Sequence record: OQ174501.1
DNA: 64,000 nt
Reading direction: 5' to 3' (one strand)
From: Escherichia phage REP2
The position numbers and the translations under genes were made by a program. Positions within the stretch are counted from its first letter, which is position 1, and every line of letters begins with the position of its first letter. Positions 3,288 through 36,460 of the stretch are shown here, in pieces. The notes under the pieces are model-generated. The model was not told the DNA's origin and did no database searches. It saw nothing but the letters and a program-made list of their open reading frames with translations.

Positions 3288-3772
3288 TTTTAAAAACTCG
3301 CTGGTATGATTTAGATGATGGGGACGATGGCATTTCAGTTGATAGAGTTGACTGGAGTGGCTGTTCCGAAGATATGAAAAAATTGTTAATTAGGGAGTTT
3401 AGAATGGGATATCAAGCAGCTAAGCCATCTACTGTAACAGATGATAAATTCGTGTGTATTCAAAATGGTCGTGCTAAGTTAACGAACGCTGATTGGTTCA
3501 CAGATAAGAAGGTTATTCTGTGGTATATTATTAGTTTTCCTGTGACATCATTTGTATTTTGCTTCTTTGGAGAAAGTCCAGTAGGCAGAACGGAAGATTG
3601 GATTCTTTTAATTATACTTGTTAATATTTTTACAGCAGCAGTACTATCAGGAATATGGTGCGTGTTCATTGAAATGCCATGGCGGTTACGTAGGCAGCAA
3701 AAGATTTTTGATGAAAAGAAATATACTCAAAATTTAAATAATTTTATCACTGAATGCAGGAAATTAAAATGA
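3284..3772 (+). CDS. Small membrane protein, paralogue family
   Basis: 162 aa; TM segments; C-terminal TECRKLK; its stop overlaps the nudE start (ATGA). Confidence 0.55.
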   Translation: MILKTRWYDLDDGDDGISVDRVDWSGCSEDMKKLLIREFRMGYQAAKPSTVTDDKFVCIQNGRAKLTNADWFTDKKVILWYIISFPVTSFVFCFFGESPVGRTEDWILLIILVNIFTAAVLSGIWCVFIEMPWRLRRQQKIFDEKKYTQNLNNFITECRKLK

Positions 3773-4208
3773 AAACATTATCAGCTGGTATTATCTTTAT
3801 GACAGAAGATAAAGATTTATTTATGGGACGAGTTACTGGTTCTCGTAAGCCTGGAATGATGGCACATCGCTGGATATTCCAAAGGGGCGTGTAGAAAATT
3901 CTGATTTAAGCGCATTAGATGCAGCACGAAGAGAATGCTCAGAAGAGACTGGTTTTAACAATTATAATCCAGACCTTCTAGAAGACCTAGGTGTATTTAA
4001 ATATTCTAGTAATAAAGACTTACAGTTATTTTATTATACGATTCCAGTAGAGCATGAGATGTTCAGAAATTGCCGTTGTGAGTCTTATTTTGAAAATAAA
4101 GATGGCGTTATGATTCCAGAGATGGATGCTTTTGCTCTTATTCCTCGTACTCAGTGGCAATATGTGATGGGTCCTTCACTTTACCGAATAATGAACAGCC
4201 TCTTTTAA
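3769..4208 (+). pseudogene. nudE: Nudix hydrolase NudE (e.1) with apparent 1-nt deletion frameshift
   Basis: N-terminal 41 codons (MKTLSAGIIFMTED...MMAHRW) stop at 3892-3894; the rest, including the Nudix box GRVENSDLSALDAARRECSEETGF, continues in the -1 frame to 4208. The break is at tgg(g)atattcc. Confidence 0.6.
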
Positions 4209-4778
<570 letters not shown>

Positions 4779-4798: not shown

Positions 4799-5215
4799 AT
4801 GACTCGTATTAATTTGACTTTAGTATCTGAACTTGCTGATCAACATTTAATCGCAGAATACCGTGAATTGCCACGCGTTTTTGGTATAATTCGTAAGCAT
4901 GTGGCAAACGGTAAGCGCGTTAAAGATTTTAAAATATCTTCCGAGTTTATTTTAGGTTCTGGTCATGTTACGTTCTTTTACGATAAGTTAGAATTTTTGC
5001 GAAAGCGTCAATTAGACATTATAACGGAATGCTTAAAACGCGGGTTCAGTATAAAAGATACTGAAGTTCCTGACATCAGCGATATTCCAATAGAATGGAA
5101 AAATGATTATAATCCATGCAAATCAGCTATTAAATTGAGTCAACAACGACTTGATGAAAAAATTTTAATGAAACCACACTGGTATAAGTATTACGGTAAA
5201 AATATTTACATTTAA
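4799..5215 (+). CDS. denV: Endonuclease V (pyrimidine dimer DNA glycosylase)
   Basis: 138 aa; [17 protein letters not shown]...YRELPRVFG matches T4 DenV as I recall it. Confidence 0.93.
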
Positions 5216-19008: not shown

Positions 19009-20028
19009 ATGAAAACTCGTTCTCAAATTGAAGATATGGTTCGTAATGCCAGCTATACTCGTGATGTTATGACATTTTTGTGCCAAAATAATTTAGACCC
19101 TGATAAAGTTAATCGTGATATTCACTTTAAGTATATGAATAGCAGTGAATGGTTACGTCATTTTAATGAAGCAGGGTATATTACTCAAATGACTGCTCGT
19201 GAGCAGCTCACCGATTTCTGTAAAACTATTGATTATAAAAATCCTCTATTTGTTCAAGGCGTTGGTCAAAGTAAGGTCGATTTATCATCTGGATTTTTCA
19301 ATCCAAATCATTATCGTATTGAATGGAGATTTATTGCTCTATTCCGTAGACAATTAAAGCAAATTTTGTCTACTGCTAGTCGATTAAAAGGTTCTGATAT
19401 TAACTTAAAGAATCTTAAATTTGATGGTTATACTCTTCAGATGGAAGTAAGACCATTAAAAGAAAATAATAGAACTGCACGAATTAGCTTTAAACCTAAT
19501 ACAAAAAATTCTCTTTCAATTTGTGAATGCCTTAAATCGCAGTTGACAGAAGCATTTAAGTATATGGATGTTGTTGCTGCTGTTCAGTCTAAGATTTCAC
19601 AGCATTTCGAACGATTTAAATTAGACACAACAGCGTATGAACTTGATATGATCGTTTCATTTAAATATGAATTTTTGAGAAAAGATGAAGTCCCGCAAGA
19701 GAAAAAGCAGGAAGTGCAAGATAACTTAAATTTATCCAATTACTTATCAAACGATCCTAAATTTTGGATGTATAGTTCAGGTAATAAAGATGCATGGAAA
19801 TTTAATAAAGTGAATTTTCTTCCTATTGAAAATCCGAGTCTTAAACCTGTTGAAAAATGGCATGCAGATGCGATTGAGAAGTCTATCAAGGCAGTAGATG
19901 ATGAACTCGTTAAAGCAACTAATGAAGTGCTAGAAGCTGAAAAGATGTTGGAAAAAGCTCAAGAAAAAGTCAAAAATCTTACGAAGCAACGTTCTAAACT
20001 GAACAATGCACTAAATGCACTGAACTAG
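19009..20028 (+). CDS. Hypothetical protein with C-terminal coiled coil (member 2)
   Basis: 339 aa; C-terminal ~50 aa coiled coil. Confidence 0.55.
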   Translation: MKTRSQIEDMVRNASYTRDVMTFLCQNNLDPDKVNRDIHFKYMNSSEWLRHFNEAGYITQMTAREQLTDFCKTIDYKNPLFVQGVGQSKVDLSSGFFNPNHYRIEWRFIALFRRQLKQILSTASRLKGSDINLKNLKFDGYTLQMEVRPLKENNRTARISFKPNTKNSLSICECLKSQLTEAFKYMDVVAAVQSKISQHFERFKLDTTAYELDMIVSFKYEFLRKDEVPQEKKQEVQDNLNLSNYLSNDPKFWMYSSGNKDAWKFNKVNFLPIENPSLKPVEKWHADAIEKSIKAVDDELVKATNEVLEAEKMLEKAQEKVKNLTKQRSKLNNALNALN

Positions 20029-20060
20029 TTTACATTGCCACAAGGATGTGGTATAATGTT
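20020..20060 (+). promoter_or_regulatory. T4 early promoter
   Basis: GTTTAC 20028-20033, TATAAT 20052-20057. Confidence 0.6.
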
Positions 20061-20085
20061 CTTACTTTCTACTGAGGAGATTATT

Positions 20086-21087
20086 ATGACTCGTAACGAA
20101 TATATCAAATCATTCAATAGCGTTATTGATGATAAAGCTATACCGATGTTTGGTCAAAATATCGTTCTTTCTATTATCAATCAATGGCTCAATAGTGTTG
20201 ATGCAAGTATTGTTTCTTCTACTAAATTTATTCATGAAATTCGTAAAATTTCTAGCCGTGTAGATAAAGATGTTATCAAGAAAACCTTTAAAGAGTCTCG
20301 TCTTCTTTCATATTTGGTTAATCGGGATATTCTTGGTAATTTTGGGAAAGAAATTAAACGAACCAAAGATGTAGTAGGATATAATTGGTTCGGTGATGTT
20401 AATTCTTATCATCTTAATAATAAAGAAGACCCTGAGAATATTTTTACTCGTCGTTGGATTAGTAATTTCAGACTTTTCAAAGGACAGATTCTAAAATCAG
20501 CTTCTAAATTATGTTATGGCGATTATCGTCAAATTCATCCTTTGGCTTCTGATATGATTATCATAAAAGAATATGAACTTGATAAAAATAAAGTATCTAT
20601 TTTTGTGAATTATGGATTTTTTACACCAAACGCTAACCAAAAGAACATTAATAAATTTTTCTCAATTGCTAGCACTATAACTCGTCAGTTAGAGACTGCA
20701 TTACTTTGTATGGAAACAGTAGAAAATATTCATACATATCCTTTTAAGAATATATGCGGATGGGAAGGATATAAAATTGTAATTAGTCTTCGTGAAGTGA
20801 AATGTGCTTATTCACCTACTGATAAAGAAATTTATCAACAAAAATGTGAGGAAATTGTGAATACTCCTAAAGAAGAAACTACCCTTGAGGAACTAATGGA
20901 TAATCTTGATGATTCGCCTGAACCGGCAGAAATTCGTCCAGAAGTTATTGCACTAGAAAAAGCTTATAAAGAAGTTCTAGAAATTTCTAATAAAGCGCAG
21001 AAAGAATATGAGCAGGCTAAAAGGATTTGGGAAGAATCTGTTAATCGTCTTGATCGTTTGGAACAAGCTTTACAGTTAATTAAGTAA
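20086..21087 (+). CDS. Hypothetical protein with C-terminal coiled coil (member 3)
   Basis: ATG after gaggag (ORF track starts at 20035). Confidence 0.55.
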   Translation: MTRNEYIKSFNSVIDDKAIPMFGQNIVLSIINQWLNSVDASIVSSTKFIHEIRKISSRVDKDVIKKTFKESRLLSYLVNRDILGNFGKEIKRTKDVVGYNWFGDVNSYHLNNKEDPENIFTRRWISNFRLFKGQILKSASKLCYGDYRQIHPLASDMIIIKEYELDKNKVSIFVNYGFFTPNANQKNINKFFSIASTITRQLETALLCMETVENIHTYPFKNICGWEGYKIVISLREVKCAYSPTDKEIYQQKCEEIVNTPKEETTLEELMDNLDDSPEPAEIRPEVIALEKAYKEVLEISNKAQKEYEQAKRIWEESVNRLDRLEQALQLIK

Positions 21088-26526: not shown

Positions 26527-26993
26527 ATTACGATAGATTTTATCCCTGTGATTTTGTGAATGGCCCTGGATGCAGGGTCGTTCTTTTCGTTACAGGTTGT
26601 TTGCATAAATGTGAAGGGTGTTATAATAAATCAACATGGAATGCTAGAAATGGTGTTCCATTCACTGGTGAAACACTAGAACAATTAATTGAATGTTTGA
26701 ATAATGATTATATAGAAGGATTGACTATAACCGGAGGTGACCCTCTCTATCCTGATAACAGAGACGTGATTCACTCTGTGGTTCAAACTATTAAAAATCT
26801 TTATCCCAATAAAAGCATTTGGTTGTGGACAGGATATAAGTTTGAAGATATTAAACAACTAGAAATGCTTAAATATGTTGATGTTATTATTGATGGGAAG
26901 TATGAGAAAAATCTTCCGACCAAAAAGCTGTGGCGAGGATCAGATAATCAGCGACTTTGGTCAAATACCGATGGGGTGTGGAAACATGATTAA
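26523..26993 (+). CDS. nrdG: Anaerobic RNR activating enzyme (radical SAM)
   Basis: CLHKCEGC radical-SAM cluster motif; 156 aa. Confidence 0.9.
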   Translation: MNYDRFYPCDFVNGPGCRVVLFVTGCLHKCEGCYNKSTWNARNGVPFTGETLEQLIECLNNDYIEGLTITGGDPLYPDNRDVIHSVVQTIKNLYPNKSIWLWTGYKFEDIKQLEMLKYVDVIIDGKYEKNLPTKKLWRGSDNQRLWSNTDGVWKHD

Positions 26994-27107
26994 ATTGAAT
27001 TACATTATGGATACTATAAATGATATGATTTTCATTTTGGTCCAGAATTTTATTCGCAATATAGTTTAGTGCTTATCAATGCTTGGTTAATCAATTAAGG
27101 GTAAAAT

Positions 27108-34328: not shown

Positions 34329-34588
34329 CTTTTGATGAATTTAAAAATGTTATGATGAGTCAGCATTTTGAATGCGAAGTAAAAGATGATATTGGGCATA
34401 AAGAAATTATTGAATATTGGTTTGAACCGCTAGAGGTTGAAGATAATTGTATTAAAAAGGTTACAGTCTGCACTGACTGGGCTGTATCTTTTAACTTCAA
34501 CATTTTAGATAATGACACACCTAAATCATTACGAGATATGGCTGTATCTTGTATTAAGGATGCATACTGTGAAGTTTTCGACATTTGA
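34325..34588 (+). CDS. Hypothetical protein (46.2 position)
   Basis: 87 aa. Confidence 0.5.
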   Translation: MTFDEFKNVMMSQHFECEVKDDIGHKEIIEYWFEPLEVEDNCIKKVTVCTDWAVSFNFNILDNDTPKSLRDMAVSCIKDAYCEVFDI

Positions 34589-34775
34589 CATTAATGATGA
34601 ATTCATAGCAAACATTGATTATACCGAAGAAGATTCTAGATATGTTGGAATAATTTATATTACATCAAAAACAGCACAAGGTGTTGTTTGCATGGCTGAA
34701 TTTGATGAATACTTTTTAGATTATGATGATATGATAGAATGGTCTAAAAGATACATTAAAAGGAATCTTTTGTGA
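34569..34775 (+). CDS. Hypothetical protein (46.1 position), start uncertain
   Basis: Putative GTG start after aagga; ORF track starts at 34512. Confidence 0.4.
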   Translation: MKFSTFDINDEFIANIDYTEEDSRYVGIIYITSKTAQGVVCMAEFDEYFLDYDDMIEWSKRYIKRNLL

Positions 34776-36460
34776 AGAATTTTAAACTAAACCGAGTTAG
34801 GTATCAAAATATAATGTCAGTAGGTGGAAATCCTATTGACATTCAATTAGATAAGGTTCAAAAAACTCTTATTACTGGACGAAATGGCGGTGGTAAGTCT
34901 ACTATGTTAGAAGCCATCACATTTGGGCTTTTTGGCAAGCCATTTCGTGATGTAAAGAAAGGTCAATTAATAAACAGCACAAATAAGAAAGAACTTTTAG
35001 TTGAACTGTGGATGGAATATGATGAGAAAAAGTACTATATCAAAAGAGGACAAAAACCAAACGTTTTCGAAATCACCGTTAACGGTACACGTCTTAATGA
35101 ATCTGCCAGCAGTAAAGATTTCCAAGCAGAATTTGAACAGCTTATCGGAATGTCATATGCCAGTTTCAAGCAGATTGTTGTCCTTGGTACAGCAGGGTAT
35201 ACCCCTTTCATGGGTTTGTCGACCCCTGCGCGAAGAAAGCTTGTGGAAGACCTGCTTGAGGTAGGAACATTAGCTGAAATGGATAAGCTTAATAAAGCAC
35301 TAATACGTGAATTAAATTCGCAGAACCAAGTGCTTGATGTTAAAAAAGATAGTATTATCCAACAAATTAAAATATATAATGATAACGTTGAACGCCAGAA
35401 AAAATTAACGGGTGACAACCTTACACGTCTACAAAATATGTATGATGATTTGGCAAAAGAAGCTAGAACGCTAAAATCGGAAATAGAAGAAGCTAACGAA
35501 AGATTAGTTAATATTGTTTTGGATGAAGACCCGACTGATGCATTTAATAAAATCGGTCAAGAAGCAGTTTTAATTAAATCAAAAATTGACTCGTATAATA
35601 AAGTCATTAATATGTATCACGAAGGTGGATTATGTCCAACCTGTTTGTCACAATTAAGTTCCGGTGATAAAGTTGTTTCTAAAATTAAAGATAAAGTTTC
35701 TGAATGTACGCATTCGTTTGAACAGCTTTCAACACACCGTGATAATTTAAAAGTTCTTGTTGATGAATACCGAGATAATATTAAAACTCAGCAGTCGTTG
35801 GCAAATGATATTCGCAATAAAAAGCAATCTCTAATCACGACGGTAGATAAAGCTAAAAAAGTTAAAGCAGCTATAGAAAAAGCATCTTCTGAGTTTATTG
35901 ACCATGCTGATGAAATAGCACTGCTTCAAGAAGAACTTGATAAAATTGTTAAGACAAAAACTAATTTAGTAATGGAAAAATACCACCGAGGAATTTTGAC
36001 TGATATGCTCAAAGATTCTGGTATTAAAGGTGCTATTATTAAAAAGTACATTCCATTATTTAATAAGCAGATTAACCATTATCTTAAAATAATGGAAGCG
36101 GATTATGTGTTTACATTAGATGAAGAATTTAATGAGACAATTAAATCCCGTGGTCGTGAAGATTTTAGTTATGCTTCATTCAGTCAAGGTGAAAAAGCAC
36201 GAATTGATATTGCTCTTTTATTTACTTGGCGTGATATTGCTGAAAAAGTTTCAGGTGTTAAAATAAGTTGTTTATTTCTTGATGAAGTGTATGACGGTGC
36301 ATTTGATGCTGAAGGCATTAAAAATGTAGCTAAAATTTTAGATGGTTTGAAGGATACCAACTTCTTCATAATTTCGCATAAAGACCATGATCCGCAGGAT
36401 TATGGACAGCATATTAAAATGGAAAAAGTTGGTAGATTTAGTGTTGCCACTATTAATTAA
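34772..36460 (+). CDS. 46: Recombination endonuclease subunit gp46 (Rad50/SbcC-like ATPase)
   Basis: 562 aa; Walker A GRNGGGKST, long coiled coil with CPTC zinc hook, C-terminal signature/Walker B LFLDEV; GTG start. Confidence 0.9.
   Translation: MKNFKLNRVRYQNIMSVGGNPIDIQLDKVQKTLITGRNGGGKSTMLEAITFGLFGKPFRDVKKGQLINSTNKKELLVELWMEYDEKKYYIKRGQKPNVFEITVNGTRLNESASSKDFQAEFEQLIGMSYASFKQIVVLGTAGYTPFMGLSTPARRKLVEDLLEVGTLAEMDKLNKALIRELNSQNQVLDVKKDSIIQQIKIYNDNVERQKKLTGDNLTRLQNMYDDLAKEARTLKSEIEEANERLVNIVLDEDPTDAFNKIGQEAVLIKSKIDSYNKVINMYHEGGLCPTCLSQLSSGDKVVSKIKDKVSECTHSFEQLSTHRDNLKVLVDEYRDNIKTQQSLANDIRNKKQSLITTVDKAKKVKAAIEKASSEFIDHADEIALLQEELDKIVKTKTNLVMEKYHRGILTDMLKDSGIKGAIIKKYIPLFNKQINHYLKIMEADYVFTLDEEFNETIKSRGREDFSYASFSQGEKARIDIALLFTWRDIAEKVSGVKISCLFLDEVYDGAFDAEGIKNVAKILDGLKDTNFFIISHKDHDPQDYGQHIKMEKVGRFSVATIN

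Follow-up and report, generated by a model that had tools for sequence, protein, structure and literature searches.

The nudE locus and its reading frames

The window analysed here is a stretch of 64,000 nt from the genome of Escherichia phage REP2 (OQ174501.1), and coordinates are window positions unless stated otherwise. The genome is of the T4-like Tequatrovirus type, and is nearly identical to that of Escherichia phage REP3. Positions 3769-4208 hold the orthologue of T4 nudE (e.1, NudE.1), flanked by ORFs for an e.2-like membrane protein, the T4-type lysozyme e and endonuclease V. The gene order e.5, e.4, e.3, e.2-like, nudE, e is the same in the window, REP3, Shigella phage Sf25, REP1 and T4. 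Downstream of the lysozyme gene, denV (endonuclease V) is present in the window (4799-5215), REP3 and REP1, and ipII (internal head protein) is present in Sf25 (L002 2730-3047).

A sequence-only reading of the window had identified the gene as nudE, encoding a Nudix hydrolase, and this identification is borne out by the orthology to T4 NudE and by the NUDIX domain of the repaired protein. T4 NudE (NP_049737) and Sf25 NudE share 97% identity, the Sf25 gene being equal to the window gene plus one G, and the 3' fragment of the window gene shares 96% identity with T4 NudE. The repaired protein matched PHROG 1185 ('nudix hydrolase') with E = 1e-73, and within the stub translated from the normal start this match is confined to residues 1-35. 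Against the Pfam NUDIX profile (PF00293, cut-off 21.1 bits), the repaired protein scored 52.1 bits and the out-of-frame 3' fragment 39.4 bits (E = 7e-10), with no Pfam match for the translated 41-aa stub. No NudE structure turned up when the PDB was searched by sequence.

Translation from the ATG at 3769 gives MKTLSAGIIFMTEDKDLFMGRVTGSRKPGMMAHRW, then IFQRGV, and ends at a TAG after 41 codons (Table 1). In the -1 frame, no stop codon occurs between 3849 and the TAA at 4206-4208, and translation continues through DIPKGRVENSDLSALDAARRECSEETGF up to the C-terminus of the protein. Alignment with nudE of Sf25 showed one difference in 441 columns, from CGCTGGGATATT to CGCTGGATATT, and when the flanks were included (801 bp) this was still a single-base difference from Sf25. 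Both the loss of one G from a short G run and the intactness of the Nudix box and the remainder of the protein in the -1 frame, as described in the sequence-only reading, agree with this alignment (TGGG versus TGG; -1 frame open over 3849-4208, and 3874-4208 identical to Sf25). A single 146-aa ORF, which that reading had named as the product of restoring the G, was obtained when the Sf25 G was added in silico, and is identical to Sf25 NudE. Its placement of the break after codon 41 has to be corrected, as the frame is lost once codon 35 (TGG, Trp) has been read, and the figure of 41 codons describes the stub as a whole.

No uninterrupted ORF runs from a start codon through the Nudix box, the frame being broken at 3873/3874. 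The first codons of the box overlap the premature TAG. The core RECSEETGF, encoded at 3930-3956, fits the REUxEExGU core with its catalytic glutamates, and the Glu pair equivalent to E64/E65 of T4 NudE.1 is present in the -1 frame. Spacing from the upstream Gly to RE is one residue over the textbook Gx5Ex7RE, as it is in T4. The frame that encodes the box contains no ATG, GTG or TTG until 4059, i.e. past the box. Because the stub ends before the Nudix box, no active hydrolase could be made, and nudE as written is predicted to be a gene that cannot give active enzyme.

Table 1. Coordinates of features at the nudE locus of the window, and of nudE frameshift alleles in other sequences
Feature	Position	Strand	Description
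nudE 5' fragment	3769..3894	+	Codons 1-35 authentic NudE; codons 36-41 (IFQRGV) out of frame; TAG at 3892-3894
One-base deletion site	3871..3873	+	TGG in the window, TGGG in Sf25, REP1, T4 and ECP2301; G3 run reduced to G2
nudE 3' part, -1 frame	3874..4208	+	Same as Sf25; ends with TAA at 4206-4208
Nudix box GRVENSDLSALDAARRECSEETGF	3885-3956	+	Wholly 3' of the shift; encoded, outside the translated frame
Alternative upstream ATG	3754..3756	+	Start of the 151-aa T4 NudE annotation, five codons upstream of 3769
Two TATAAATA motifs	4211-4218, 4224-4231 (4211..4231)	+	Between nudE and the lysozyme gene e
ECP2301 (OR880646.1)	L013 470-911		nudE frameshift, G4 to G5
Contig from run ERR6109018	L017 2001-2442		nudE frameshift, G4 to G5
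NFZC01010412.1	L016 298-423		nudE frameshift, G4 to G3

Judged from the sequence, the start codon of nudE is ambiguous between 3754 and 3769, with the better ribosome-binding site at 3769. An AGGA motif lies 7 nt before the ATG at 3769, whose overlap with the stop codon of the preceding gene forms an ATGA, and nudE of REP3, REP1 and Sf25 is annotated from the equivalent ATG. The published residue numbers (E64, E65) count from the upstream start of T4, and Trp35 here is Trp40 in T4.

The TATAAATA motifs at 4211 and 4224 match the T4 late-promoter consensus, and are candidate late promoters. With both motifs 3' of the lesion, e should be expressed whether or not nudE is translated, and a polar effect of the lesion on the lysozyme gene appears unlikely.

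As for the premature TAG, read-through would reach only a TAA at 3907-3909, still outside the Nudix frame. The recoded strain Syn61-delta-3 is reported to lack release factor 1, and termination at TAG would then be inefficient in that strain.

Distribution of the deletion and of other nudE frameshifts

A megablast search with positions 3600-4400 returned matches in 513 phage records. The best match was REP3 (OQ174502.1), identical at 801/801 bases, and the other top matches spanned 802-803 bases. Collinearity with REP3 extends over all 64 kb, window position 1 corresponding to REP3 position 152854 on the reverse strand. Over this length the two differ by 45 substitutions and no indels, the substitutions falling in two patches (19737-20646 and 34465-34888). 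By its sequence, the window is a near-clone of REP3 and a separate genome with the same deletion, and at least two distinct genomes carry the lesion.

The stub in the window corresponds to OQ174502.1 148961-149086, and the lesion in REP3 is visible there as an annotated 126-nt CDS followed by a 350-bp gap. Identical 41-aa products have been deposited for REP2 (WBY52808.1) and REP3 (WCA46170.1), on two contigs of 50-200 kb. The stub is labelled 'nudix hydrolase' without a pseudogene flag in REP3 and 'hypothetical protein' in REP2, the remaining 350 bp of the gene being unannotated.

Of the two patches, positions 19737-20646 contain 34 substitutions in an nrdC.4/.5-like paralogue pair, and positions 34465-34888 contain 11 substitutions near genes 46.1 and 46.2 and the beginning of gene 46. 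Both patches were closer to REP1 and other phages than to REP3 (98.4% and 99.7%), and have the appearance of short tracts left by recombination or gene conversion among co-isolated phages. The nrdC.4/.5-like proteins of the window (19009-20028 and 20056-21087) had no exact match in a collection of 15 billion proteins.

REP1 was isolated from river water in the study that also gave REP2 and REP3 (later preprint, same laboratory). Its nudE is intact, with 441 bp and the same CATCGCTGGGATATTCC context. The junctions can be told apart as TGGATATTCCAAAGGGGCGTG, the REP3 type with the deletion, TGGGATATTCCAAAGGGGCGTG, the counterpart without the deletion, and GGGCCGCG, which marks REP1. In the fecal-DNA Illumina reads of the 2026 firewall preprint, REP3 and REP1 are the predominant phages.

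Junctions were searched in a phage collection from which the REP2 record OQ174501 was absent. Among 300 matching phage records, a 60-mer over the deletion was found exactly only in REP3, and the rest had the extra G. The sequence-only reading had proposed a comparison with nudE of close relatives, and in Sf25, REP1 and T4 there is TGGG where the window has TGG. Essentially all of approximately 500 related genomes have an intact nudE. In IMG/VR, the intact junction had 4 matches and the deleted junction 0, a sample too thin for an estimate of frequency (4 intact junctions in all). On these records, the deletion is limited to the REP2/REP3 lineage, and it would be very recent, because the gene shows no other change relative to Sf25.

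Other stubs were found through the protein cluster (90% identity) to which the REP stub belongs, and come from ECP2301, a contig from run ERR6109018 and NFZC01010412.1 (Table 1). These alleles resemble that of REP2 and REP3 in being single-base changes of a G run, in lying within the same 17-bp stretch and in leaving a short stub (41 or 45 aa). They differ in that the adjacent G4 run is hit, 13-17 bases 3' of the REP deletion, and not the G3 run, and in that their sequence backgrounds are different from that of REP2 and REP3. Given the different run and the other backgrounds, they would represent independent events or independent errors, and some may be assembly errors. Within the phage collection, ECP2301 was the sole record with the G5 allele, and none had the G3 allele (G4 to G3). 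A 49-aa C-terminal piece in ECP2301 is annotated 'nudix hydrolase'.

Origin of the frameshift

We consider the deletion to be quite probably genuine, and to be a loss-of-function frameshift in nudE. The sequence-only reading had left a choice between a genuine inactivating mutation and a homopolymer sequencing error, and the evidence now leans toward the former and away from the latter, given its presence in two isolates, the G3 run of REP1 and the absence of general frameshift noise.

A sequencing or assembly artefact, in which the real sequence is TGGG, encoding an intact 146-aa NudE, and the G was dropped in base-calling, consensus or polishing, is unlikely in our judgment. It would be in keeping with the location of the site in a homopolymer, where indel errors typically occur, with the identity of the rest of the gene to an intact relative, and with the restriction of the allele to the REP2/REP3 pair from one laboratory. 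The DNA of T-even phages carries heavy modification, from which some long-read base-calling suffers, and this counts in favour of an artefact. The G run is, however, just three bases long, and the deletion occurs in two separately deposited genomes and in a window with 45 differences from REP3. An Illumina consensus rarely miscalls a G3 run, which also counts against an artefact. So does the statement in a later preprint from the same laboratory that its phage isolates were sequenced by Illumina.

REP2 and REP3 probably passed through the same sequencing pipeline, and for this reason an error specific to the sequence context is opposed by REP1 only. A G3 run was called at this site in REP1, which belongs to the same study and has the same context, so that a common pipeline does not systematically lose a G there.

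The quality of the assembly was assessed with a scan for split frames, in which Sf25 ORFs of at least 50 aa in the syntenic 64 kb were compared with the window. There were 245 Sf25 ORFs with matches, 214 of them full-length in one frame, and two were split between frames. The two are nudE and a doubtful 74-codon ORF, and no other conserved gene is frame-broken in the 64 kb, which argues against an artefact at nudE. Because the only other frame split is a doubtful one, the assembly does not appear noisy with homopolymer errors. A base-level list of indels relative to Sf25 was set aside, as it was dominated by paired compensating gaps in diverged stretches.

The second split ORF (26875-27095, RB32ORF074c-like) is located in a gap without annotation that follows nrdG, and is disrupted by a change from T5 to T4 at 27029. 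The T4 variant is also present in REP3 and vB_EcoM_112, with T5 in Sf25 and most relatives, and the window 61-mer at 27029 had a match of at least 99% in 6 of 656 records. The ORF, unannotated in most records, may not be a gene.

The intact state of nudE in approximately 500 genomes suggests that selection keeps the gene in nature, which makes a null allele somewhat unexpected. We considered whether inactivation of nudE could be favoured on some hosts (Syn61-delta-3, or hosts whose defences are based on NAD or ADP-ribose), with recurrent knockouts arising at a hotspot formed by the G runs at 3871-3887. Three different frameshift alleles within 17 bp, on several backgrounds (G3 to G2, G4 to G5, G4 to G3), are in line with this idea, as is the use of the recoded host Syn61-delta-3 to isolate the REP phages from river water (later preprint, same laboratory). 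It is nevertheless improbable. The protein cluster gathers only stubs near this length, and is an ascertainment-biased sample; each allele is found in at most one of approximately 500 Tequatrovirus genomes matching the nudE region; some of the other alleles could be assembly errors; and REP1, which has the same isolation host, retains nudE. If a hotspot or selection did prove to be involved, REP2 and REP3 would be ready-made natural nulls for the in vivo role of NudE.1. Phase variation of the locus was rejected: contingency loci of this kind typically have a homopolymer tract of at least 7 bases whose length varies between isolates, and the tracts here are G3 and G4, with each variant length in at most one matching phage record.

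Production of full-length NudE by programmed -1 ribosomal frameshifting or another restoration of frame within 3849-3894 is extremely improbable: both frames are open in this 46-nt zone, such that a -1 shift anywhere within it would give a nearly normal protein, and the zone contains a rare AGG codon, but no X XXY YYZ slippery heptamer was found in the stub frame (3769-3894), the two-frame layout is not conserved (approximately 300-500 relatives have a plain in-frame gene, and the shift is present only in REP2 and REP3), and no dedicated signal would have evolved, since the deletion is the sole difference from an intact gene. The G and A runs are also too short for transcriptional slippage. 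Internal restart for the 3' part was rejected, for want of a start codon in the Nudix frame upstream of 4059.

Predicted consequences and comparison with T4 NudE.1

A genuine frameshift would most simply have arisen by slipped-strand mispairing during replication, with the loss of one G from GGG. Translation from the normal start would then leave the NudE frame after Trp35 and terminate at the TAG, and the 3' part would lack a usable start codon, such that no active hydrolase would be produced. Phages of the REP2/REP3 lineage would be viable without NudE, with at most a modest change in the timing of lysis.

The substrates of T4 NudE.1 in vitro include NAD, NAD-capped RNA, FAD, ADP-ribose and Ap3A (bioRxiv 10.1101/2024.04.04.588121). 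A T4 phage with the catalytically dead variant E64,65Q exhibited similar burst size and progeny yield, with lysis approximately 15 min later; an auxiliary role had already been indicated by earlier studies of T4 without NudE.1 (bioRxiv 10.1101/2024.04.04.588121). Because T4 NudE.1 is auxiliary in the laboratory, a nudE null allele should be tolerated in culture, and by this analogy its loss should be tolerated in the REP2/REP3 lineage.

The finding is an ordinary one-base frameshift in a well-known T4 accessory gene, and the public records of REP2 and REP3 already show the truncated CDS. What is new is that the lesion is common to two sibling isolates, and is probably real. Its chief import is for annotation hygiene, and there is little beyond this. 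For users of REP2 and REP3, it means that these phages probably lack NudE activity; REP3 has already been included in phage cocktails testing genetic-firewall strains (later preprint, same laboratory). Should the allele be real, natural NudE.1-null relatives of T4 would be available in REP2 and REP3, and could be compared with REP1 or Sf25 for the metabolism of NAD caps and ADP-ribose in infection.

The nudE gene of T4 occupies the same position as that of the window, between the e.2-like gene and e, and shares with it the NUDIX domain and the RECxEETGF core with the E64/E65 pair. The activities listed for T4 NudE (NP_049737) include NAD(H). The T4 gene is intact, as it is in approximately 500 relatives, whereas in the window the frame is broken and the catalytic part is untranslated. 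The engineered T4 E64,65Q and e.1 deletion mutants are NudE-null, as is predicted for REP2 and REP3, and are viable. The REP2/REP3 allele differs from these in being a natural truncation, and not an engineered point mutation or deletion. By analogy with the T4 nulls, we expect REP2 and REP3 to show a similar burst size, and lysis delayed by approximately 15 min.
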